Shown piece after piece: positions 17,087 through 64,000 of a DNA stretch of 64,000 bases. The stretch covers positions 1-64,000 of the forward strand of contig MEDY01000093.1 in assembly GCA_001724265.1 (NCBI GenBank). The letters are read 5' to 3'. How positions within the stretch are numbered: position 1 is the first letter of the stretch; each line of letters opens with the position of its first letter. The notes beneath the pieces are model-generated. The model made no database searches, had not been told where the DNA came from, and was given only the letters and a program-made list of their open reading frames with translations. A program made the translations under genes and the position numbers. The DNA is from Rhizaria sp. SCN 62-66. Taxonomy: Eukaryota.

Positions 17087-17707
17087 GCGAGCCTTGCGAC
17101 CAGCGCGACCGCCGAGACCCACTGAGCGCCCGCTTTGCGGTGAGATCATTCCTTTGCTTACCTACAACCCGGGCCAAAGAGATATTTGCTTTATGTAGTT
17201 CTATTTTATACAAATATTTTTAAGTTCAAACAAATATTATTTTGCTATGTATTCTACTTTCGGCCAATTCTGAAACGATCTATGTCTTGTTTTAACTTGA
17301 AAAGGAACGCTCTTTGACTCGCTTGCCATCGGTTTGTGGCGGCCGAGCGGGGAGTGACGAGAAGCAACATGCAAAAGTAACGTAACTGGTTTTGGAATGA
17401 CTGTTCGCGTTATTGGCTCCGTCTTTGCGACACTGAGAGATTTTTTGATATTATTTGTTGTCTGATTTATCATATTCAGATTTTCTAAGCGCTATTAGAG
17501 TGACAAAGACATCGAAATAGCTCATTTAATTCGTCCGCTTGTACAGACCCCTTTGAACAGGTAATTGATTCCTTTTGCCGACGCAGTTTCAAAGGTTCTG
17601 ACGTTGTTTCAAGCGATAAGTGGTGACCAACACCGCGTCGCCCTTCTAAACTACAGCCTGCGCACCGCGCTGAGCCTCGTACAGTCCCCACAACCCCAAT
17701 AGCAAGA

Positions 17708-20700
17708 ATGGAGATCATCTCCCCGCTGCCGATAGTCGCGGCGCTGCTACTCGTACTGCTGATCCTCGCCATCGTGCTCATTGTGCTCAAGTGCAAGATG
17801 CCGCCCGTGGTGGCTGATGTGACGCAGCTGGGCCAGCTTAAGGCTAACACGCATGAGTTCCTGGTTCCGTTCCACGAGCTCCAGTTCGGCCGCCTGCTGG
17901 GCAAGGGCTCGCAGGGCGAGGTATACCTGGCGCAGTGGCGCGGCTCCACCGTCGCCGTCAAGCGCGTTGACACGGACAAAGTCGACCCGGCCGCTGTGGA
18001 CGAGTTCTGTCAGGAGGCGAACATCATGCGGCAGTTGCGGCACCCGTCGCTGACGCTCTTCCTGGGCGTGAGCATTAAGGAGCCTGAACTGTGCATCGTG
18101 ACTGAGTACGTTGTCCGCGGCTCGCTCTTCGACATTCTCCACGACGAGGCCTCGCCCTACACCTGGCAACGCGGGCTCCGCATTATGTGCGACGTTGCGC
18201 GCGGCATGACGTACTTGCACTCGGCCAAGCCGGCGCCCATCCTACACCGCGATCTCAAATCGCTCAACATTCTGGTCGACGCCAACTGGCGCGGCAAGGT
18301 CGCCGACTTCGGCATGACACGCATCCAGGAAGAGGGCGCCACCATGACGCAGTGCGGCTCCCCGCTTTGGATGGCGCCCGAGATGATCCGCAACACGGCC
18401 TACGACGAGAAGAGCGACGTGTACTCGTTCGGCATCTGTCTCTGGGAGGTCTACATGCGCAAGATCCCTTACCGTTCACTGGGGTTGGCCGCCAGCAACC
18501 TTGTCGTCAAGGTCGTCAAGGATCATCTGCGGCCCGAGATTCCCAACACCATGCCGCGGCCCTACTTCAAGCTCATGGAGCGCTGCTGGCACCCGCTGCC
18601 CGAGAAGCGCCCCTCATTCCGTCAAATCCTCCGCGTGCTTGAGTCCTTCTGCGAGGACCCAGGCTTGCTGTCGCACGTCCCCAACTCGCAGCGCCAGGCC
18701 ACCGTGACCGCGCGCGCGGGGCTGCCGCCGCTGGCGCACGTGCAACACGGCGGCGCGGGCGCGGACGACGACTTCGACGGCGACGAAGAAGCGCCCGCAG
18801 CCGCGCACGCCGCGGCCGCGGGCGGGCAGCGCGCGCTTGTCGGCCGCCGCGTCAAGGGCGGCGTCGGGCTTGCCGCGGGCGCCGAGCCCGAGCGTTCGGA
18901 CGCGTGGCTCATCAAGGACTGGCGCGCGGACGTCACGACCGACTCGATCACGGCCACGGAGCGTGAGATGCAGGACGCCAACACGCGCGCCGACGCCTCC
19001 GCCGAGTACTCGGTCTCGCACGCCAACGCCCCCGACGGGTTCGAGCGCCGGCCTTCGATCATGAAGCGACAGAGCTTCTCCGCCAGCACTGGTGGCGGCC
19101 TCGACTCCTCGCAGACCGGCGGCGCTGGCGGCGGTGGTGACCGACGTGCGTCGAACGGCGGCAAGCGCGCATCTGCGTCGGCGTTGCGGCCCTCGCCGCT
19201 GCTGTCTGCGGCCGCGGCGCCCTCGGTCACGCCGTCGGGCACCGCCGTGTCGGCGTCGCCGGCCGTGGGGGGCGTGGGCGGGCGCATTGCGCCCATCGCA
19301 GAGGACGGCGAGGAGGACATCTACGCCGAGCTCGTGCGGCCCGTGCGCAAGGTCGCGCGCACCCGGTTGTTCCCGTCGGACCTCTACCTGGCCAAATACC
19401 GCGGCAAGGACTGCGCACTGCGCAAGCTATATCTCTCCGCGCGCCCCACGGACCCCGAGGCGACCAAAGGCGCGCCCGTCCCGCAGTGCGGCTGGCGCCG
19501 CGGCGACGACGACGAAGAGGCTGGCACCGGGGGCGAGGAACGCGTGATGCCGCGGCGCTCGCTACTGGTGGGCTCCGACGACGCCGTGTGGACCAAAGTG
19601 GAGCGCGCACTGGGCACGCTCGCGGCGCTGCGGCACCCGAACCTTGTACTCTTCATGGGCGCCTACCGCGCAGAGGACCACGCCGGCGTTGTGGTGGAGC
19701 TCATGGAACAGGGCGCGCTGGCGGGACTGCTGCGCGACACGTCGCTGCTGTTCGAGTGGGACACGACGCTGTCGATGCTGCTCGACACGGCGCAGGCAGT
19801 CAAGTACTTGCACTCGGCCAAGCCCCCGCTGGCGCCCGCGGAGCTGTCGCCGACCACGCTCATGGTCGACGCCAACTGGCGCGTCAAGCTCTACAACACC
19901 GTGCTGTCCTCGCTCGACGCCGTCGTGTACGGGCTCTCGGGCACCAAGGACGGCGCACTCACGCTGCAGCCCACGGCGTACACGGCACCCGAGTGCATGG
20001 ACGCGCCGGAACGCGTGACGCCCGCGGCCAACGTGTACGCCTTTGCCGTCATCGTCAACGAGCTCTTCTCGCGGCGCCCGCCTTTCGACGGCAACTTCGA
20101 CGTGCGTACGATGCGCCAAGTCGTCCGCAAGGACCTGCGGCCCGCGATCAGCGGGTCGATGCCGCCTGTGCTCGCCGCGCTTGTGCGCCAGGGTTTCACT
20201 GCGGATCCGGCGAAGCGGCCGCCGATCGACTCGTTCCTCACGCTGTTGCAGCAGCTCCAGACCGAGGGCCCGCCCAAGATGGAGCTCACGCTGGGGCCAC
20301 GCGGCAACGCACGCAAGTACCGCAAGGCCGCGACCATCTTCGCGTACCGCACTGCGGACCCCGTGACGGTGCTTAAGGACTGGGGCCGCAACCAGGGCCG
20401 CGCGGGCAGCTACGTGGTGTGCGGCAAGGACGACGACGTGTACGCCGTCGACGCAGACATCTTCAAGCGGACGTACGAACCGATCCGCGGGTCGAAGCGT
20501 AAGCACGAATACCGCAAAACGGGCTACGTCGTCGCCCGGAGGCTCGAGGAGCCCTTCGTGGTGCGTACCAAGGGCGGCGCCAATGAGCACGGCCACGCGG
20601 GCGACTACCTGGTGCAGAACGAGCAGGGCGAGCAGTGGGCGATCGACGCTAAGACCTTCGAGGACACGTATGAGGAGGACGACGGCACCGAGGCCGCGGC

Positions 20701-21202
20701 CATCGCCGCCGCCACCGCGGCCGCCGCCGCGAGCCTCGCCTCGCGGCCCGGTACCGTGGTGACCGCCGTGCCCTCCGCACTGGGCGTCGGCGCGGTCACG
20801 GGCACCCCTGGCGGGCGTGTGGGCACTGCGCAGTCGCTGTCCGCGCGGCCGACGTCAGTTTCGAGCGTGCAGACGAACCCTGCGCAAACGCCCGCGGGTC
20901 GCCGCGCGACGGCTGTGACGGGCTCGGCCGCGATGGTGCCTGTTGCCGCGCACGCGCGCACGCAGTCGCGCAGCGGGGCGTCGCTCGCGCTGGACCTGGC
21001 CGCCGCTGAGGGCAACACTGGGGGTCCGTTCGCGAGCATCACGCCCACCGCGCGCCGGCAGACGTCGGCCTCGGGCGCGGGCGTGGGCTCAGTCACGCCG
21101 CAGGCGGGCACGCCAACGGCCTCTATAGGCGTCGCCAATGCGCCGATCCGCGGGCTCGTGCCCCGCGCTCGTCCCGAAGCTCCCAGCACGCCTGGGCTGT
21201 GA
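17708..21202 (+). CDS. Membrane-anchored TKL-family kinase + pseudokinase + tandem PGDYG-like domain
   Basis: N-terminal hydrophobic helix. Kinase 1 has GKGSQG, VAVK, HRDLKSLN, DFG and WMAPE. The second kinase-like domain (LRHPNLVLFMG, AYTAPE) lacks HRD and DFG. Two C-terminal repeats YRK...G(S/D)Y(V/L)V...F..TYE. TGA stop. Confidence 0.85.
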   Translation: MEIISPLPIVAALLLVLLILAIVLIVLKCKMPPVVADVTQLGQLKANTHEFLVPFHELQFGRLLGKGSQGEVYLAQWRGSTVAVKRVDTDKVDPAAVDEFCQEANIMRQLRHPSLTLFLGVSIKEPELCIVTEYVVRGSLFDILHDEASPYTWQRGLRIMCDVARGMTYLHSAKPAPILHRDLKSLNILVDANWRGKVADFGMTRIQEEGATMTQCGSPLWMAPEMIRNTAYDEKSDVYSFGICLWEVYMRKIPYRSLGLAASNLVVKVVKDHLRPEIPNTMPRPYFKLMERCWHPLPEKRPSFRQILRVLESFCEDPGLLSHVPNSQRQATVTARAGLPPLAHVQHGGAGADDDFDGDEEAPAAAHAAAAGGQRALVGRRVKGGVGLAAGAEPERSDAWLIKDWRADVTTDSITATEREMQDANTRADASAEYSVSHANAPDGFERRPSIMKRQSFSASTGGGLDSSQTGGAGGGGDRRASNGGKRASASALRPSPLLSAAAAPSVTPSGTAVSASPAVGGVGGRIAPIAEDGEEDIYAELVRPVRKVARTRLFPSDLYLAKYRGKDCALRKLYLSARPTDPEATKGAPVPQCGWRRGDDDEEAGTGGEERVMPRRSLLVGSDDAVWTKVERALGTLAALRHPNLVLFMGAYRAEDHAGVVVELMEQGALAGLLRDTSLLFEWDTTLSMLLDTAQAVKYLHSAKPPLAPAELSPTTLMVDANWRVKLYNTVLSSLDAVVYGLSGTKDGALTLQPTAYTAPECMDAPERVTPAANVYAFAVIVNELFSRRPPFDGNFDVRTMRQVVRKDLRPAISGSMPPVLAALVRQGFTADPAKRPPIDSFLTLLQQLQTEGPPKMELTLGPRGNARKYRKAATIFAYRTADPVTVLKDWGRNQGRAGSYVVCGKDDDVYAVDADIFKRTYEPIRGSKRKHEYRKTGYVVARRLEEPFVVRTKGGANEHGHAGDYLVQNEQGEQWAIDAKTFEDTYEEDDGTEAAAIAAATAAAAASLASRPGTVVTAVPSALGVGAVTGTPGGRVGTAQSLSARPTSVSSVQTNPAQTPAGRRATAVTGSAAMVPVAAHARTQSRSGASLALDLAAAEGNTGGPFASITPTARRQTSASGAGVGSVTPQAGTPTASIGVANAPIRGLVPRARPEAPSTPGL

Positions 21203-21658
21203 GCTTGTGCTGTCCCAATTATCTCACTTGTACTCTTGAGTTAATCTTTTTCTTTTCCTCTTAAAACACTCGCATTGGATGTGAGTTTATTATTATTATC
21301 TTAATACATTGATTTTGTCCATATTATCCTCAACAAACATCATGTATTGCGACAAAAGTGCACGTTTCAAGTCCACATCGTCCGCTTCGGACACTGACCG
21401 TGAGCACACATCCTCCAAGGAGTTGGCATCTAAAACACATGTGCAGTCCACCGGTCGATTTCCGTAAATGGATATTATATTCTTCTAAAACGTAAGCGTT
21501 ATTCACACACCCTCATTTGATTGTTTTTGATTTAACGGTCCTTCTGGCTTAGTAGCCCAACTCTTAGCCAACGGCCTGCCGCGTCGCCGCTCTTGGTGCG
21601 TATTCCGAAAAGCAAGGCGTATAGGAGCAAACAGAGCGCATTGTGTTCGTGACTCGGC

Positions 21659-24600
21659 ATGAGTGAAGCACACGGCCAGAGCCGTGTGACATTTGCATCC
21701 GATGCATCACAGCTTTTATCGAGTCGCCAAGAGGGCTTCGGCCCGGCCGCTCCGACTTCGACCGACTTGTCCGTACAGCCGCGCCTCTCTATTTCTAACT
21801 CGGCCTCGAGTACGACTGGCGTCTTGCTACCGCAACACCACACAGTGACGATTAACACCCCCGTTTCTGTCTCCGCCAGCGGCACGGGCGGCAGCGGTCG
21901 CAGCCGGAGCTCGGCGTCGGGCACTCTGCGCCGACGCTCGGGCCGAAGCAAGTCTCGCGTCGCGCCCTTCGGCAGCCCGAAGATCTCGAAGAACCGGTTC
22001 AAGTTCCGCCGCCGTCGAGGCTTTACGTCCTCGACCTCTTCGTCTGGGTTATCCACGTCCACGTCGTCATCGTCCTCCTCCTCTTCATCTTCGTCGTCGT
22101 CTTCGTCCTCATCGTCGTCGTCGTCTGACTTCGACTCGTCTTAGTCCTCGGCCTCAGGCTCAGACGACACATCCTCCTCCTCCGGCTCCGACGCGGAGCC
22201 GGACCTGGCGTACGATGACGTGTCCGCCTTCTGGACGCACGGCAGCTTTGACCCGCGGTACTACTCGCAGCACTACGGCGGCGGCGGCGGCAGCCACTAC
22301 CACGGCCAGGGCGGCGCGCACGCGTGGTACTTTCCCCAGGGCGCCGCGGGCGGCCCGCAGTTCGACTCCACGGCCGGCGGCGAGTGGCAGGGCCTGGCCA
22401 TGGCGCGCACGCAGGCCGCCTACGCGCAGGAGATTGACGACGCGTACCACGGTGTGCGCGGTTTGGTTCGCACAGAGCGTCCGGCACCCGTCGCCTGGCG
22501 TTCCACGTGGGCGCGCGTCAACAAGCCGTACGAGATTGCACGCTTTCTCTGCCAGCTGGGGCTCGTCATCGCGTTCTTTTACGTCATCACAGCCGCCGCG
22601 GGTGGGCACCTCATCTTCGAGCGCACCGCAGCCAAGGGCCTCGCGTCGCGGTTACTGCCGGAATCACTTTCATCGCTGCGGTCCTTCGACGGGTCAGAGC
22701 CCGTGCTGACGCCGACTCAGATGCGCGAGGCTGCGGAGACGATGACAACGGTCTATTACGCGCTAGGCGACGCCGTGGAGCGCTTCGTCTACCACTTGCC
22801 CGCGGACCAGAACGTGGTGTCGTGCGTGGTGGACCACCGCAACGGGTCTTCGGTGACGTACGCGCTCTACGCCGACGACCTGGGCCCCTTCCAGCAAGGC
22901 GGCGGCGACCTCGCGCGCTGGCTGCAGAACTCGGACATCGCGGTCATCACGCTTGCCTTCGAAGTGCAGGCGCATCTCTTCTTCGGGCGCCGCTACTGCA
23001 TCGAGTGGGGCGCGCAATACGTCGTCGCCGTCGCGCCCAAGGCCGCCGAGGCGACGGGCCGCCTCAAAACCTCGGTCACCATGTGCAGCGAGGGTCCGCG
23101 GTCGGCGGGCGTGACCGAGATCGACGTCATCAACGTCGTCGTCACCGCGCTGTCTTTCGCGCTCTTCGCCATCTACATCTCCGTCCTGGGCAAGACGGCC
23201 ACCGCGTTCAAGCGATACGTCTTCGCGCGCATCTGCCCGCGCGCGGCGCGCCGAACGCGTTCCCCGCGCGCGGCGCGCACGACTGCCGCGGCCGCGGCCG
23301 CCGACGCGGCCGCTGAAACCGCCGCCACCGCGGCCGCCAACGCCACCGCCGCTGCGGCCGCGGCCGCCGCAGCTGGGTACGCCGCGCATGACGCCGGCGC
23401 GTACTTCCCGCCCGAGCTCGGCGACGGCACATTCACTTTTGGCCCCGTGAATGCGAATGCGGTCAATCCTGCTGCGCCAGTGGCGCAGGAGCCGGTGCAG
23501 CGGCCGCGCAGCCGGGGCGGGACGTTCCGCTCGGGGCTTTCGGTGCAGCAGACACCGACTGCATCCGCGATGGGCGCCGCGAGTGACGACGACCACGACG
23601 ACTCCGGGTACGACCACGACGACCTAGACGATCTCGACGACGATGACGACGACGGCGCGTCGCTGAATGCGGGCGGCACGGGGTGGACGCGGCACGTGCG
23701 GCTGCGCGACGACGCCGCCAACGCCGCCGCGGCCACGGCCTCGGAGTCGGCGCTCGCCGCCGCTGCGGGCGGCTACGATGACGACGGCAGCACGTTCGGC
23801 TCGATGACAGCGCGTGCAATGGTCGATAGCGACGACAGCGACGACGACCTCGAGGGCTTCGGCGGTGCGCGCGCCCGCCGCGGGCCCGGGCGCGCGTTCG
23901 GCGCGCGGTCTCTCTCCGCGGCGGCGGCGGCTCGGCCCGCGCGGTCGCAGGTGCCGCAGCACATGCGCGCAGAGCTGGAGCGCGAGGCGAGCGAGGCCGA
24001 GGCCCTGGCTGTGGCCGCGGCGTCCTCCGCTCTCGCGGCCGCTGAGCGCGCCGACGAAGAGGCGCGCGCGCCGCGGCGGCCGCCGTGGAGCACCGTGGTC
24101 GCGGCGGCGCGGACCGAGCTGACGGTGGCGCACCTGGTGCAGGCGCTGTCGATCTCGCTCAATCTGGCCTATTCGACGCTGTCGTACCGTGAGCACCACA
24201 CGTTCGACGCTCCTGTGGACTCTGAGTCGATCCGCCTGCTTTTCGCCTTTGCCGCGGCTACAGCGTCGATGATGCTGCTGCCGTCGCTGTCGCTGCTGCC
24301 GTACACGTACACCGTGTTCCAGAACACCATGATCACGGCCACGCCCTCACTGGTGCGCGTCCTTATCGGCGCGCTGCCCTTTTACTTCGGATTCACATTT
24401 TTCGCCTGGGTAGTCTTCGATAAGTACAGCGCGCGCTTCCAGTCTTTCAACTACGCGGCGACGAACCTGTTCGCCGTGATGAAAGGCGACAACATCCTCG
24501 CGCTCTTCAACGAGCTCGCACACGCAGGTATCGTCGGTCGAGTGTTTCTGTACTCGTTCGTCATCTTCTTCACACTGCTGCTGTACCGCCTCATCCTCGC

Positions 24601-27562
24601 GCTCGTCGGCTTCTTTGTGCTGTTACACCAGCCTGAGGTGCACACTGACGGCCACCTCACCGGCGTTGACCGCATTGCCGCTGACATCGCCGCAGACGCC
24701 GCCAAGGAGCGCAAGTTCCGCCGCCGCGAGCGCCGCCGCCGCCAGCGCCGCCGCCGCCAGCGCCGCCGCCGCCACCAGCAGCACGGCTCCAGCTCTTCGT
24801 CGTCATCATCGACTTCATCTAGCTACGACTCTGACGCGGACACGGACTCGGATGACTCCGGCACGCACACGTCTGACTCTGAGCTGTCGAGCATGACCGA
24901 GAGCTTTGGCGACTCCCGCGGTGACCGCGACGGCAACGGTGCGCCGCCCGCGCTGGCCCGCGTGCAATCGAGCTACTTGCCCGCGCCGCCGATGCCGCTG
25001 GCGCTGCCGCAGCCGCAGCCGACGCCGGGGCCCGGGTTGATGCAGCCGACGCCCACATTGCCGCCGACGCCGCGCGGGGGCGGGACCAGACTCTCTCGCG
25101 CGCCCTCAATGTCCGGCTTTGCTCCCGGCGCACTGTCGTACGGACAGATGCCGCCGATGGGTCCGATGGGCTCGCAGATGCCGGCCGGTGCCAAACCGCC
25201 GCTGGGGCAGAACAAGTTCTCGCTCGCGCCGGCCGCGTCTTTCACATCCGCGGGCTTTGGTCCTATGGCCGTCGCCGCCTCGCCGGCCGGCTCGTACTAC
25301 GGGCCCGGCAGCGCGCTTGCGCAGCACCCCGCGGGCTCTTACGCACCGGACACAGGCGCGCTCGCGGGCTCCGTGAGCTACGGGCTCGGCGGCGCGTTCC
25401 AGCCTGTGAGCTCGTTTGCCTCCTCAGCGGGCTCGTTCATCCCTTCTGGTTCCTTCGCCCCGTCGGGCTCGTTCGCGCCTCTGGGCTCGTTTGCACCGCC
25501 GATGTCGTTCGGACCCGCGGGCTCGTTTGCCGCGCCGCCACCGCCGTCTCCGCTCGCACAGTCCCAGTTCCAACAACAACAACATCAGCAGCAGCAGCAG
25601 TTCCCACAGCAGCTCCCATTTCCGCAGCAGTTTATGCACGGTACCGCGCTGGTGCCCATAGGCCAGCCGCAGCCGCAGCCGCAGCCGGGTTTGCCGCCGC
25701 TCGCGCCTGCGATCCAGGGCGGCCGCGTGCACCCACTAGCGCAGCAGTATCAACAGCTGCACGCGTCAACGTCGGTGTCGCCGCCCACGCTGCCGTCGGT
25801 CTCCCCGTCCGGCACGCATGGCGGCGACGGCGAGCCCACTGCCGCAGTGACCGGAGCCGCGGACGCGTGGGACGAGGACGATGAGCTGGACGCGCTGGCG
25901 GCGTTTGCGGACGACGCGGACGACGACGACGACGGCGGCGACGACGCCGACATCGCTGGCGTGCCCGTCGGCGCATTCGCCCCCGCCTTGGGCCCCGGCC
26001 GCTCGCGCTCGCGCGCGCTGGGCCTTATTGGCAGCGGTGGTGAGACGCCGAAACGCGGCGTGACCCCGCGTCGGCGCCCGCCCGCGGGCCGCGACTCGAC
26101 CCCACAGCCCGGAGGCGACCGTGGCGGCGACCGGTCGGGGTTGGGCGCAATCCCGCCTCCGCTAGGCCCTCAGGCGTCGCAGTCGCAGTCTGCCGCTCAA
26201 CCAGGGCAACCAGCACTGATGTCGCCACAAGGCCCGATGTTGTCGCGCAGAGCGTCGATCGCGTCCCCCGCGGACCCTGGCGAGTGGACACCAATGCACC
26301 CGCAGCAGCACTTTCTCCACATGCAGCAGCAGCAACAGCAGCAGATGCAGGCGCAGCAGCAAATGATGGGGATGCCGCCCGACATGCCGCCGATGCTGGG
26401 CCGCTCAATGACGCTTCCACTTGGCCCGCCGGGGCTGGGTCAGGGCGTGTTCTTCGTGCCGCCCGCGCTGGCGTCGCCACAGGGCACGGTGCGCGGTGAC
26501 GGGCGCACACACCGCAAGCAGTTGCGTGGCCGCACTGTGCGCAAGCTGTGGACGTGGCCCAAACTCACGGCCGATGAATGTGTGCGCTACTTCGCCACTG
26601 CCGCCGAGGACAACGCCGCCGCTGCAGCCGCGCGCGCCGCCGCAGGTTTGAGCGCGCTGGTGGAGGCTGTGCCGGCGGAGCGCGCGACGTCGCTGTCGCG
26701 GCTGTGCGGACTGGGCGCTCTCGACGGCCCTGTGGCGCCGCTGCTGACGCTGCTCGACCGCACGGGCTCGGAGTCGCTGCACCGCCTTGCGGGCGGCCAC
26801 GCCGAGCCCTTCAACCTCACGGAGCTCTGGGCCGCGCTGCGCGAGCGCCGTACGAACGACAAGCGCAAGCGCGTGCAGACGGCTGCGGCGACGACGGCGG
26901 CGGCGGCGGAGGCTGCGGTGGGCACTCCGAACGAGGAGTCCACCGCGGCCGCGGCTGCGACTGCCGCGGCCGCGCTGGCGGCGTGGAGGGAGCGTAAGCC
27001 GCGCAAGCAGCGGCGTCCGCGTCCGCTGGCACTGTCGCTGGCGCCGATGATGGTGCAGCTCAACTGTCTTCACGTGGCGCTGTGCCTCTACTTCTTGACG
27101 TTCGACTTTACGCGGCGCCTCGCGCTCGTGATGCACCGGCTGCGGCGCCAGCAGAGCACCGACGGCGGCGCGCCCAGCGTTGCGGCCGAGCTGCTCGCGC
27201 AGTACAAGACCAAGGGCTGGACGCGCGAGCACACGGTGCCGTGCGCGCAGTCGCACCGCTGTCTGCTCTGTGTCGTATCGGGCGTGTACCAGGACCTGGT
27301 GGCGACTTTCTGGGGCCGTCTCGAGCGCAAGCTTGTCCGCTACCTGCTGCAGCCGATCGAGTTGCAGCAAGACGAGGACTTGCCCGCGCTCACCACAGTC
27401 ACCACTTACCGCGTCGGCCGCGCCATTGACCAATACATCGACGAGCGCGTTGATACCGGCGGTCCGCCTGTAGTTGCGACAACGACAACGACGACGCCCG
27501 CTATCGCTTTGATCGAGGAGGCACCACAGAGTAGTGCGTCACCAAAGCTAACTCTGGCTTAA
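21659..27562 (+). CDS. Mucolipin (TRPML)-like cation channel with large low-complexity insertions; contains 1 in-frame TAG
   Basis: Track ORFs 21659..22144 and 22220..27562 are in one frame, separated by TAG 22142-22144. The S5-pore-S6 region (PSLVRVLIGALPFYFGFTFFAWVVFDKYSARFQSFNYAATNLFAVMKGDNI..GRVFLYSFVIFF..LILALV) matches the mucolipin pattern. TAA stop. Confidence 0.75.
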
Positions 27563-51452: not shown

Positions 51453-53823
51453 TTACGCGCTCTCAGGGAACTGGAGCGCGAGCGAGTCCGCAATGAGCGC
51501 CTCAACACCGGCGGCGTCAGAGCGCACGGGCAGCGTGGGCACAATGGGCAGTGCGCCCTCAGCACCAGCCTCAAACGCCGCCGCGGCACGCTTGATCGCG
51601 CGTTCCGCCTTATCGTTGCCAGCCCACGCGCGGCGCGCGACGCCGTTGTTGACGTCCCAGAACAGCATCAGACGCGCCTTGGCGGCCGCGTCGTCGGTGC
51701 CGTCGAGAACGAGGCCGAAGCCACCGTTGATGGCCTTGCCCCACCCGGTGCCGCCGCCGTTATGGAGCGCGACCCACGTCGCGCCGCGCACAGCGTCGCC
51801 GATGCAGTTTTGCACAGCCATGTCTGCGGTGAACTTGGACCCGTCGCAGACATTGCTGGTTTCGCGGAACGGCGAGTCCGTGCCCGACACGTCGTGGTGG
51901 TCGCGCGACAGCACGACGGGACCGTGGAGGCGGCCTGACTTAACGGCGGCGTTGATCGCACCGGCAATAGCGGCGCGCCCGGCGGCGTCGGCATACAAGA
52001 TGCGCGCCTGTGATCCGACGACGAGATGATTCTCCTGCGCGGCGTCAATCCACAGGATGTTGTCCTTGAGCTGGCCCCGCACCTCGCCGTCGCCCTCGCA
52101 GGTCAGCAGCCCCTTGAGTACTTCACTGGCGATGGAGTCAGTCGCGGCGAGGTCCTCCGCGCGGCCAGAGGTGCAGACCCATCGGAACGGACCGAAGCCC
52201 ATGGAGAAGATGTCTCCCATGAACTCCTCCACATAACTCGGGTACTTGAACGTCACGTTTGTCTCCGTGACGGCGTCGCCCGCGCGCGCCGCCGGGAGCG
52301 CGATGTCGGCGCCCGCGCGGAACGCTTCGAGCAAGAACGAGTTCCCGTAGTCCCAGAAGCGCGAGCCCCGGGTAACGAGGGCGTTGATCGCGGTCACCTG
52401 GCGGCGCAGAGAGGCCTGAACAGCGGCCTTGAACGCCGCGGGGTCGGCCGCCATGAGCGCGTTGGACTCGGCGAGTGTGAGCCCGGTGGGGTAGAAACCG
52501 CCGTTGTAGGGGTTATGCAGCGAGGTCTGATCCGAGGCCAGGTCGATGAGGTTCTCACCAGTGGCGGCGGCGTCGGCGGCGAAACGCTCCCAGACGTCAA
52601 CGACGTTGCCCAGATAGGCAAGTGCAACGGCTTCGCGGCCGGCGCGAGCGGCGCGCACGCGCTTGACCAGCACGTCCAGGCACGTGATCTGTACGTTCAC
52701 GCAGAAAAAAACAAGAGAAAATCAAAATATGGAATTAGATGTTGCAAAAATAACCTGATATAGTCGTTATTTACATAAAAATAGGATTTGTCATGACGTG
52801 TGATAATTTGAAACGAATATCATGATTAACATCAGAATCATGACAGTTAATAACGATCAGCAAACAAGAATCGTGATATATGGGTTTGGTTTTTTGCGGT
52901 TTGTTTCATATTCGCCATACCTTCTCGGTGACCCATCCCTGCGCGTGGCGCTTATCAAGTGCGTTCTCATCTATCTCAGCTATCACCGTGACAGCGCCGC
53001 AGATCACACCGGCCTTGCCCTGGGCACCGGACATGCCGCCCAGTCCGGACGAAAGATAGACCTTGCCGGCAAGCGAGGTGTCCGGGTCGCCAGCGCCGAG
53101 GTACTTGCGGCCTGCGTTGAGGACCGTGAGCACCGTGCCGTGCACGATGCCCTGGGGGCCGATGTAAGCGAACCCGCCGGCGGTCATCTGGCCGTATTGA
53201 GTGACACCCATTGCGTACATGCGGTCGTAGTCAACCGGGGTGGAGGCCATAGGGACGACCATGCCGTTGGTGATCACGAGGCGCGGGGCAGAGGGCAGAG
53301 ACGCGAAGAGGCCCTGCGGGTGGCCTGAGTTGAGCACGAGCGTCGAGTTCTCGTCGAGGCGGCAGAGGTAGTGCATCATGAGCCGGTATTCGGCCCAGTT
53401 CGAGAACGCGGACCCGTTGCCGCCGTACGTCACAAGCTCTTCGGGGAACTGCGCGACGGCGGGGTCGAGGTTGTTCATCACCATAAGCATCACGGCCTTG
53501 GCGTGCGCGTGGCGACCGGGGTAGCAGGAAATGGGGTAGGCGCGCATGGCGTACTCATTCGGCATGTACCGGTAGCAGTAGATGTGGCCATACTGTTGCA
53601 GCTCGGCGGCAAACTCGGGCGCCAGCACGGCGTGGTGCTCGGCGGGGAAGTACCGCAGGATGTTGCGGACGGCCTGAATGAACTCGCCGCGCTGCAGACC
53701 GTGCTTGCGGACTGGCGCGTGGGGCACGCCCGGCGAGCGCGTGCGGGGCGGGGGAAGCACGGAGAGATCCGCGGGGAGGCACTTGGCAAGCAAGGCCGTC
53801 ACGATGGCTTGGTCGAACTCCAT
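51453..53823 (-). CDS. UROC1: Urocanate hydratase (eukaryotic long form), 2 exons
   Basis: Exons 53823-52921 and 52688-51453. Motifs: NNLDPAVAQFPEELVTYGGNG, YGQMTAG..YIGPQGIVHGT, GLGGMSGAQ, SDQTSLHNP, RDHHDVSGTDSPFRETSN, HNGGGTGWG. TAA stop. Confidence 0.96.
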
Positions 53824-54376
53824 TAAGCCAGCTGGAGAGGCGTGGTGGCGCGGTAGAGAGGGGACAAAGGTCAAGGGATGACGGACAAACGGTGAGTCCG
53901 GAGGAGAAGAGTGAAGATTAAGTCGGACAAAACAGATATTATGGAGAATCAGTAAGATAAATTGTTATCATGTAAGATGGACTAAGATCAAATCATGATG
54001 AAACGTGTCAGGCGGGCCTTTTACTTGTGACAACAAGTGAAATAAAAAAGTGATGCAGTCTTGGGTCGGGGGTCAACACGAAAGGAAAGATAGCGCAATA
54101 AACCAAGCAGTTAAAGCAACAGTAATTAGTGATAGTAATCAATAAAGTGGGATCTATTGTGAAGCTAAACAGAATCTAAATATACGGTCACAGTCGGCCA
54201 CACTAACTCGTTTCAGGCAGTCCACCTCATCATCAAGCCGAACAGGCACCTCGTCGATGGCCGTCGCCGCCGCACTGCACAGCACCGGCAGTCACCCCGA
54301 AACAGTCTTAAAACACAGCGAATACTGAATAACATCGCACAAAACAGGGTAATATCGCACATCAACGCGTGGAAAA

Positions 54377-61994: not shown

Positions 61995-62843
61995 GATGTT
62001 GTTGTGTGCCCCCTTGCGTGCTTGTCGACATTAACTATATTCGAGAGAGATTCACAAGGTGTGTCTCTGGACTCAACTCAACTTTTATCACTGCTGTGAG
62101 CAGTGAGATTTCAAATTTTTAAAGCGGGTATACCCGCATGCTGATCTCCAACCTGTGTCTCAATCGAATGCTATACTGTTGAATATTCTGCATACATAGT
62201 CATATTACTTGTGATATCTTTATTCCACTCAACTTCACTTGAATACATCTTGAATAACGCATGATAACTTCAGTGTGCTCACGGTCACTGGCTGCTGACA
62301 GTCGAGTCGGGCGAATCGACCGACGTGTCGGCGGGTGAACGGCAGCTTCGAACCTGCACAGTCCGTCTTGTGGCCATGAAATAAGCATATTCTTGTGTGC
62401 ATCAGTCTACTTCTGGTGGGTCCTTTATGTAGCTTCTTTAATCTTCTCAAATGTGGGTCCTGTGTGCGGTATCACGATGCCGAAGTCAGCCCTCGCCCAG
62501 CGACGGCGTCTTCGCCTCGATATGGGGTGAACTTTCCAGCGATGGCGACATATATGAATGCAGTAGCGTGTCAAACTTAACCATCAAGATTGAACCGTTG
62601 CGTTTTGCTGTATGGCTTTGGTTTTATTGCTACCTCGACTTGATTTGCGCGAGAACAGCTTGGGTGAAAAGCCCTCCACGCATTTTTTTCAACCTCAACC
62701 AGCCCCACCTTATTCTTGTAACACGATGCATGCCCACTCTGCGCCGCTCGGTAGCCAGCAGCTCGCTGCATCTTATTGCAATTGAACGCATTTTCTTATT
62801 ATTTTGCTACTGTTTTTTCTTTACCTGCATCTTCTAGCCCGCG

Positions 62844-64000
62844 ATGTCTGCCCCGCACATCACAGAGAACCCCTCCCCGTCCGACCTGGCGATGGACAAG
62901 TTCGCGGCGCAGGCCAAGGCCACGCTCGCGCAGCTCGCCGAGCTCAACGACGACGAGTTCGCGACGTACCTTCTTACTGCACCCACGCTGCCGCAGCTGC
63001 AGGGCTGTATCTTCGTAGGCCACAAGGCCACTGACCTGGACTCGATTGCGTCGGCAGTGGCCTGCGCCGAGCTCTTCGGCGGCACCGCGGCGCGCGCGTC
63101 CGAGGTCAACTCCGAGACGCGCTGCGCGCTCGACCTCTGGCACGTCCCGCTGCCCGAGACCTTCTCCTCGGCCTGCGAGCGCCTGCCGAACGCCAAGATC
63201 GTGCTGTGCGACCACAATCAGATGTCTCAGTCGCCCGACGGGCTGGATCTGACGCGCTTGCACGGGTGCATCGACCACCACGCGATGCAGGGCCGCACCG
63301 TAATGACCTCGGCGCCTATCTACGTCTGCATCCAGCCCTGGGGCTCAGCGTGCACGATCGTCGCGCACATGTTCTTTGCGGCCCGCCGCAAGATGACGCG
63401 CCACGTCGCCGGCATGCTGCTGTCTGGCATCGTCTCCGACACGCTCAATCTGCGCTCGCCGACGACCACGGACCCGGACCGCCACGCTGTCACGCTGCTC
63501 GCGCGCCTCGTCCACGACTCTCCCGTGGGTCGCTGTGACGTCACGGCGCTCGCGCGCACGCTCTTTAAGGCTAAGTCGCGTGAGGTTCTGCTGTGCACGC
63601 CGCACCAGCTTGTGCGTGGCGACCTCAAGACGTTCGAGTGCCGCTGCAACGCGCCTCGCGGCGCGCTCGTCGCGCTCGAGGGCGACGGCGCCCCCGCCGC
63701 TGACGCCGCGGCCGCCGCCGCTATCGACGCCGCCGCCGCTGCTGCTGCCGGTGCGGAGACAGTGCTGTCGATGGCGTTCGGCGTGATCGAGACCACCGAT
63801 CTCTCGACGCTGACGCCGCTCAAGGCCGAGCTGCAGAAGGAGCTGCGTGCGCTCAAGCGCGAGGAACGTCGTGACCTTGCCTTTCTTGCTCTCGTGGACA
63901 TTGACCGGCTGCATTCGCTGCTCGTCACTGCCGGCGAGCGCGAGCTGTCTCTCGCGATGGCCGCTTTCCCGGGCGCCAAACACGACGAGGCGTCCGGTCT
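62844..64000 (+). CDS. Family II (DHH/DHHA2) Mn-dependent inorganic pyrophosphatase, PpaC-like; truncated by the window end
   Basis: The frame is open from ATG 62844 to the window end and is missing from the ORF track. Motifs: FVGHKATDLDSIASA, VNSETR, LCDHNQ..QS, IDHH, PWGSACTIV, AGMLLSGIVSDTLNLRSPTTT, GDLKTF. Confidence 0.85.
   Translation, partial: MSAPHITENPSPSDLAMDKFAAQAKATLAQLAELNDDEFATYLLTAPTLPQLQGCIFVGHKATDLDSIASAVACAELFGGTAARASEVNSETRCALDLWHVPLPETFSSACERLPNAKIVLCDHNQMSQSPDGLDLTRLHGCIDHHAMQGRTVMTSAPIYVCIQPWGSACTIVAHMFFAARRKMTRHVAGMLLSGIVSDTLNLRSPTTTDPDRHAVTLLARLVHDSPVGRCDVTALARTLFKAKSREVLLCTPHQLVRGDLKTFECRCNAPRGALVALEGDGAPAADAAAAAAIDAAAAAAAGAETVLSMAFGVIETTDLSTLTPLKAELQKELRALKREERRDLAFLALVDIDRLHSLLVTAGERELSLAMAAFPGAKHDEASG

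Follow-up and report, generated by a model that had tools for sequence, protein, structure and literature searches.

A duplicated PGDYG module at the C-terminus of a eukaryotic kinase–pseudokinase protein, a candidate regulatory sensor domain

Proteins in which an intact kinase fold shares a chain with a second that lacks catalytic residues are known as tandem kinase-pseudokinases, and include the JAK proteins (JH2-JH1) and plant tandem kinase proteins such as WTK1/Yr15. Small sensor domains of the CNB and GAF types, in turn, regulate protein kinases (PKA/PKG), phosphodiesterases (PDE2/5/6) and ion channels (CNG/HCN). Here we describe a gene found in a stretch of 64,000 nucleotides from Rhizaria sp. 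SCN 62-66 (contig MEDY01000093.1, positions 1 to 64,000 of the forward strand), the whole of which we call the window. Its product, P0001, combines a hydrophobic N-terminal anchor, a TKL-like kinase domain, a second kinase-like domain predicted to be a pseudokinase, and a C-terminal module of the PGDYG family (Pfam PF14083), which has been known as an uncharacterised family of stand-alone proteins of bacteria and phages. An earlier note on this DNA had pointed to the module from the letters alone, and we followed it up by computational analysis.

The resemblance of P0001 to the JAK and plant tandem kinases is one of layout only. In contrast to these proteins, P0001 has no FERM, SH2 or other Pfam domain beyond PF07714, PF00069 and PF14083 (E up to 1), both of its kinase domains are nearest to CTR1-type TKL kinases, it starts with a membrane anchor and carries a C-terminal PGDYG module, and in the PGDYG kinase family the dead domain varies by subgroup. 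The likeness to CNB and GAF proteins is one of analogy: PGDYG modules are present on kinases, cyclic-nucleotide phosphodiesterases (PDEs) and ion-transport-type proteins, at the place that a ligand sensor would occupy, but there is no sequence relation between PGDYG and these domains, and Pfam detects no cNMP_binding, GAF or PAS domain in P0001 (E up to 1) or in four PDE fusions (E up to 0.01). The module is closest to PF14083 itself, since it scores above the family cut-off, aligns end to end with stand-alone members and keeps the same YRK, GD(W/Y) and F..TYE positions. It differs from the known members in being the C-terminal domain of a 1164-residue eukaryotic membrane-anchored kinase, and in belonging to a clade that is set off from the stand-alone forms by a branch with support 100/98.

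The earlier note had quoted two repeats, and frame +2 of 20282–20692 translates to the quoted sequence, with each repeat being about 57 residues long and the positions given for them accurate to within 3 bases. Repeat 1 and repeat 2 share 21 of 57 positions (37%, E 1e-11 in a single BLASTP comparison), and common to both is the pattern Y-R-K ... G-(D/S)-Y ... F..T-Y-E. The note had placed the repeats in the PGDYG family, allowing that a significant match to a PGDYG profile might fail to appear; PF14083 does match. Its curated gathering cut-off is 27 bits, and the module taken by itself reaches 36.6 bits (E 6.1e-9), the whole protein 32.2 bits. On the profile side the match takes in positions 1–101 of 102; on the protein side it begins midway through repeat 1 and stops where repeat 2 ends, indicating that the profile describes about 1.5 repeats. 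Because this Pfam span, the stand-alone relatives with two repeats and the arrays built of whole units all agree, the two repeats make up, at the sequence level, a single, internally duplicated PGDYG module, which is the usual state of the family, and not a tandem of two domains as had been suggested.

In an alignment of 35 sequences (A1), stand-alone relatives of about 126–158 residues align across both repeats. Identity to the window module in this alignment is 29–56%, F61 is invariant, and G35, Y65, A85, F126 and Y130 are nearly so. The nearest Atlas clusters are proteins of 126–150 residues named PGDYG (score 0.91–0.92). With a hidden Markov model (HMM) of the module we found 119 near-full two-repeat units in 155 proteins, and a six-frame scan of the window with the same HMM gave no second copy of the module. 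The family consensus has G-D-W/Y in both repeats, whereas the window module has AGSYV in the first repeat and AGDYL in the second; the G-D-aromatic core is retained in repeat 2 only, and the literal P-G-D-Y-G string, the eponymous motif of PF14083, is absent from the window module. The PHROG matches (E 1e-12 to 4e-7) are all to families of unknown function (PHROGs 419, 36774, 1810 and 4502), and a search of the module against NCBIfam returned a chance-level row only.

Kinase domain 1 keeps the motifs GKGSQGEV, VAVK, HRDLKSLN, DFG and APE. Its best matches among solved structures are CTR1 (1.5e-56), TNNI3K (1.7e-51) and MAP3K9 (2.6e-49), followed by MLK4, ZAK and TAK1, all of which are kinases of the TKL group, and by these nearest solved relatives domain 1 is TKL-like. 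Domain 2 also has a kinase fold, with 75 bits to domain 1 in phmmer and CTR1 (7.3e-23) as its closest solved relative. In alignment A2 it shows CALR in the place of VAIK, APAELSPTT in that of xHRDLKxxN and LYNTVL in that of xxDFGx. None of the residues beta3 Lys, HRD Asp, catalytic-loop Asn and DFG Asp is retained, and the domain is predicted from these substitutions to be a catalytically dead pseudokinase. The fusion to a eukaryotic kinase that the earlier note had read from this gene is thus correct as to the kinase, which is nearest to CTR1/TNNI3K/MLK-type enzymes, but the module adjoins the dead kinase-like domain, starting 6–12 residues past it, and not the active kinase. The hydrophobic N-terminal segment also opens the relatives P0005 and P0010, and we infer that the rest of P0001 beyond the anchor is cytosolic. 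The exact sequence of P0001 was already recorded in the protein collection and in the Atlas. We hold the identity and architecture of the protein, as summarised in Table 1, to be very nearly certain.

Table 1. Features of the gene for P0001, in window coordinates.
Feature	Position	Strand	Basis or remark
Whole coding sequence	17708..21202	+	1164 residues + stop (P0001); ATG 17708, open frame 17627-21202, no intron required
Hydrophobic membrane anchor, N-terminal, ~residues 5-28	17720..17791	+	Hydropathy scan flags residues 1-39
Kinase domain 1, TKL-like, catalytic motifs intact	17879..18637	+	Residues 58-310; Pfam PK_Tyr_Ser-Thr E 6.2e-85
Linker, low-complexity, Ala/Gly/Ser-rich, 226 residues (311-536)	18638..19315	+	Translation; no Pfam family at E up to 1
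Kinase-like domain 2, predicted pseudokinase, ~residues 537-853	19316..20266	+	Fold matches and aligned motifs
PGDYG module repeat 1, residues 869-925, GSY replaces GDY	20312..20482	+	Translation, BLASTP, Pfam, conservation
PGDYG module repeat 2, residues 933-990, AGDYLVQN	20504..20677	+	Translation, BLASTP, Pfam, conservation
C-terminal tail, Ala/Ser/Thr/Gly-rich	20678..21199	+	Translation

A HMMER search of 1.84 billion representative sequences, clustered at 50% identity, retrieved 519 PGDYG relatives at E ≤ 1e-3, of which 119 reach E ≤ 1e-10 and 8 reach E ≤ 1e-30. Fusion to kinases is recurrent, as kinase domains are present in 43 of the 150 best representative matches (phmmer, E ≤ 1e-3), and in 45 of 155 proteins when P0004 and P0005 are added. 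The module is C-terminal to the last kinase domain in 45 of these 45, at a distance of 6–22 residues (median 13) except in a single protein, where it is 101, and two separate kinase-fold regions are found in 17 of the 21 proteins of at least 650 residues. Alignment A2 shows an intact domain 1 followed by a degenerate domain 2 in P0001, P0003, P0005, P0010, P0032, P0044 and P0088, whereas in P0021, P0028, P0034, P0040, P0051, P0055, P0078, P0104 and others domain 1 lacks the HRD Asp and domain 2 is intact. As judged from these aligned motifs, the plan common to all pairs a live with a dead kinase and puts the module last, which defines a conserved protein family, and since the degenerate domain differs between subgroups, the live and dead roles have been exchanged at least once, with the module staying C-terminal.

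The module has other partners as well. It precedes PDEase_I in P0087, P0093, P0128 and P0026, no further Pfam domain being present there, and in both the kinase and the PDE fusions it is the sole recognisable non-catalytic domain. It lies upstream of Ion_trans in P0083, has TrkA_N as partner in P0109, and is located between hydrophobic blocks in five multi-pass membrane proteins of about 950–1100 residues (P0033, P0038, P0045, P0073 and P0101), which end in two EF-hand pairs and whose membrane part stays below cut-off for every Pfam family. Three giant proteins of 1994–3743 residues (P0008, P0018 and P0064) have from 3 to at least 15 modules arranged head to tail and a C-terminal Zeta_toxin/AAA_33 P-loop kinase, joining the module to a second, unrelated kind of kinase; an annexin domain is N-terminal in P0008, below cut-off in P0018, and was not found in P0064.

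Among the stand-alone forms, the nearest clusters are bacterial and phage, in line with what the note had said of the family; the nearest Atlas clusters are 55–86% Bacteria, with Pseudomonadota or Uroviricota commonest. The window module (P0002) has no match among 50,697 phage records (tblastn, E ≤ 1e-3), while P0091 matches 116 of these records and P0146 matches 84, most of the matches spanning just one repeat and almost every record bearing the annotation 'hypothetical protein'. Scans of genome contigs with P0095 and P0144 gave no confirmed relative.

A maximum-likelihood tree was built from 99 modules, from which the long-branch P0061 was excluded; the tree is unrooted and its rows carry no organism labels. 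One branch, with support 100/98, splits 50 modules from 49. The 50-module side contains 30 kinase, 4 PDE and 5 membrane/EF/Ion_trans modules and 11 short or unassigned ones, several of which are visibly fragments, and the 49-module side contains 24 short, 18 unassigned, 6 annexin/Zeta giant and 1 TrkA_N modules; the split is the best label-free bipartition of the tree, and fragments confound these labels. The Y-R-K, G-D-W/Y and F..T-Y-E positions are conserved once per repeat on both sides of this branch. The retention of the same polar and aromatic positions in the signalling-fused and stand-alone clades suggests a shared biochemical function, with two pseudo-symmetric sites.

The module was modelled with AlphaFold2 using the alignment of 35 sequences, giving a predicted local distance difference test score (pLDDT) of 94.6 and a predicted template modelling score (pTM) of 0.80. 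A model from the single sequence was unusable (pLDDT 51.4), and the alignment-based model was used instead. In this model each repeat has 6–7 short strands and one short helix, with the strands of repeat 1 within module residues 11–67, and the fold can be described, with low certainty, as a possible pair of small SH3/Tudor-like barrels. Foldseek found no match in the PDB at E ≤ 1e-3, the top row being Spindlin1 (E 0.089), and its weak, non-significant rows include OB/SSB-like and bacterial SH3b folds. VIA-align found none at Z ≥ 5 among 48,161 representatives, the best being an SH3 domain and a tandem Tudor (Z 4.1), and most of its rows align about 48 residues, spread across model residues 8–133, a spread that might reflect barrels to which both repeats contribute, as in hybrid Tudor domains. 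A second look gave the tandem Tudor of BAHCC1 with a Z of 4.3 (root-mean-square deviation, rmsd, 2.6; 48 residues aligned), a value within chance for common arrangements. The structures of the BAHCC1 tandem Tudor (8ye8), the OSTF1 SH3 (3ehq) and Spindlin1 (4h75) resemble the module over about 48–50 residues, with rmsd 2.2–2.8 and Z 3.3–4.3, but their identity to it is 2–12%, these scores are in the chance range, and a shared binding site is unsupported.

The best E-values in the PDB were 1.1 in a sequence search with the module and 0.25 in a profile search with the alignment, both at chance level, and as neither search finds a member, the PGDYG family appears to have no solved structure in the copy of the PDB that was used. 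In the BFVD six matches were obtained at E ≤ 1e-3, all of them uncharacterised phage or giant-virus proteins, with lower rows labelled 'PGDYG protein'. A complex prediction of residues 537–853 with 859–995 of P0001 gave a score of 0.00, which, as the run had neither alignments nor controls, counts neither for nor against docking.

We propose that the module would serve as the cytosolic regulatory input of the kinases, PDEs and membrane proteins that carry it, by binding a small ligand. In the kinases, the ligand state would reach the active kinase by way of the kinase-fold domain next to the module, in the manner of CNB and GAF domains. Such a sensor, which the earlier note had already suggested as a control on the kinase, is the reading we favour because the module spans kinases, PDEs and ion-transport/EF-hand proteins, which is the distribution of CNB and GAF. 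The ligand might be a nucleotide-type molecule, held by the conserved Tyr-Arg-Lys, Gly-Asp-Trp/Tyr and Thr-Tyr-Glu, once per repeat; this is a guess, made because of the Arg/Lys-plus-aromatic signature and the nucleotide-using partner enzymes. Taken as a whole, with identity, architecture and the ligand-sensor mechanism together, this reading is a tentative one, based in its last part on analogy, and in our estimate it falls somewhat short of an even chance of being right. A bolder form of it would make PGDYG an unrecognised receptor for a nucleotide-type second messenger, shared by phage and bacterial proteins and by eukaryotic signalling, which in protists would gate tandem kinase-pseudokinases, PDEs and Ca2+-linked membrane proteins and would constitute a third kind of sensor beside CNB and GAF. 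We regard this wider proposal as improbable; the messenger may be of the kind used in bacterial immune signalling.

Several observations weigh against a ligand sensor. In so small a barrel the conserved Tyr, Trp, Phe and Gly could be purely structural and the conserved Arg/Lys and Asp/Glu could form internal salt bridges, and the window module itself has Ser in repeat 1 where Asp is conserved. The link to phage nucleotide enzymes is weak, as the MazG-like protein of Microbacterium phage Pajaza matches by tblastn only (9e-4) and Pfam sees only PRA-PH, and no PGDYG, in it. A search with eight modules gave no PADLOC defence family at E ≤ 0.1. For the relatives, the term eukaryotic is based on domain content alone. 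The remaining points of this kind are the short distance between the module and the preceding kinase-fold domain in 44 of 45 proteins, the weak likeness of the fold to barrels that bind peptides (SH3/Tudor/Spindlin, Z 4.1–4.3), and the 15 near-full modules of P0008, which follow each other head to tail with a period of 129 residues, an arrangement commoner in binding scaffolds than in small-molecule sensors.

The last two of these are taken up by the main rival explanation, in which the module is an adaptor of SH3/Tudor type that binds peptides or proteins and thereby recruits substrates or localises the enzyme. SH3, Tudor and Spindlin are the sole structural likenesses (BAHCC1 with Z 4.3, the SH3 of OSTF1 with Z 4.1), the aromatic positions are conserved, and the up to 15 modules of P0008, together with its N-terminal annexin, recall multi-SH3 scaffolds. 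However, every Z is below 5 and within the chance range, with no significant Foldseek match in the PDB, and stand-alone bacterial proteins of about 130 residues and single-repeat phage forms are atypical of eukaryote-style peptide adaptors. Conserved Arg-Lys and Asp/Glu are not known as hallmarks of SH3 or Tudor domains either, and we consider the adaptor a serious but rather unlikely possibility. The short linker could instead be that of a constitutive structural or oligomerisation element, which would bind no ligand and would fix the geometry of the kinase pair or dimerise it for trans-phosphorylation; the pseudo-dimeric build and the occurrence of phage forms with one repeat, which suggest that repeats self-associate, are in keeping with this, but it leaves unexplained both the module before PDEase_I and in the membrane/EF-hand proteins and the presence of the same polar residues in stand-alone proteins, and we give it a small probability. 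Smaller still is the probability that the module binds a polymer, such as nucleic acid, poly-ADP-ribose, polyphosphate or a cell-wall-type glycan, and not a diffusible signal. The long arrays of P0008, P0018 and P0064 would suit a polymer, as would the OB/SSB-like and SH3b folds among the weak Foldseek rows and the weak PHROG co-matches to a resolvase family (E 0.018) and a pyrophosphohydrolase family (E 0.065), but neither these rows nor these co-matches are significant, and the kinase, PDE and channel partners are signalling and not nucleic-acid enzymes.

That the fusion of kinase and module is an artefact, due to chimeric assembly, a bacterial contaminant or chance similarity, is extremely improbable and close to refuted. 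The window does derive from a metagenome, and Logan contigs stop at 20699–20730, right after the module. Against this, one DNA contig of run X1 spans 17200–20728 with zero differences, which places the module on the same molecule as the kinase domains. The G+C content at third codon positions (GC3) is even along the open reading frame (ORF) and matches that of neighbouring eukaryotic genes, four relatives with 46–64% module identity have the same architecture (P0003, P0004, P0005 and P0156), and 43 of the 150 best matches are kinase fusions. The stretch at 20699–20730 is GCC-rich and of low complexity; contigs of several runs end in it, and many unrelated contigs of run X1 attach to it. The join between module and tail rests on the window's own assembly, the Logan contigs breaking at this stretch, and among the contigs listed for runs X4, X5 and X6 none crosses 20730–20819. 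Contigs of a polyA-selected metatranscriptome map to five places in the gene, among them 20573–20730 in repeat 2 (run X5, no differences) and 20974–21328 around the stop, which is consistent with the gene being transcribed, although polyA libraries can hold DNA too.

With regard to novelty, the earlier note had been unaware of any description of the fusion, and in print this holds: neither 'PGDYG' nor 'PF14083' is mentioned in any paper among 8.4 million full texts searched. The co-occurrence itself is nonetheless already public, in the form of PF07714, PF00069 and PF14083 labels precomputed on the proteins P0003, P0004 and P0016, and because these labels show it, the fusion was unrecorded yet discoverable. 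In our view, and returning to the ligand-sensor reading, the module is a promising candidate for a regulatory sensor domain not described before. The finding overturns nothing, but it offers a clean entry point to a large orphan family, for which a fixed place on kinase-pseudokinase pairs, PDEs and membrane/EF-hand proteins provides a testable handle on function, in a module that is small and confidently predicted. If the sensor function is true, it would represent a new input to protist signalling and would help to explain the orphan PGDYG proteins of phages and bacteria, and if the module is only an adaptor, it would still be an unrecorded accessory domain of TKL-type kinases.

The gene lies in the nuclear DNA of a eukaryote that is uncultured and GC-rich. 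The window has 64% G+C, with GC3 of about 0.85 in long ORFs and 0.87 in the ORF of P0001, and also encodes a eukaryotic topoisomerase I, an eIF2B-like subunit, an exportin/importin-like protein and a WD40 protein. Taking into account only runs with a share of at least 0.2, its source DNA is found in bioreactor and wastewater metagenomes.

Other genes in the window present some peculiarities. A gene for a DHH + DHHA2 phosphoesterase (62838–64000, + strand) is cut by the window end. Downstream of the gene for P0001, a Ser-rich ORF of 163 residues (21653–22144, + strand) is followed in frame by one of 1805 residues (22145–27562), which has a sub-threshold match only to PKD_channel (19.7 bits versus 22.4); the lone TAG between them, at 22142–22144, lies in a Ser/Asp-rich run and could be due to read-through, an error, a pseudogene or a downstream start. 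Finally, a urocanase gene on the – strand is split in two ORFs, one with the N-terminal domain and the start of the Rossmann-like domain (52909–53964) and the other with the rest (51456–52721), which suggests an intron or a frameshift in a region that is otherwise intron-poor.

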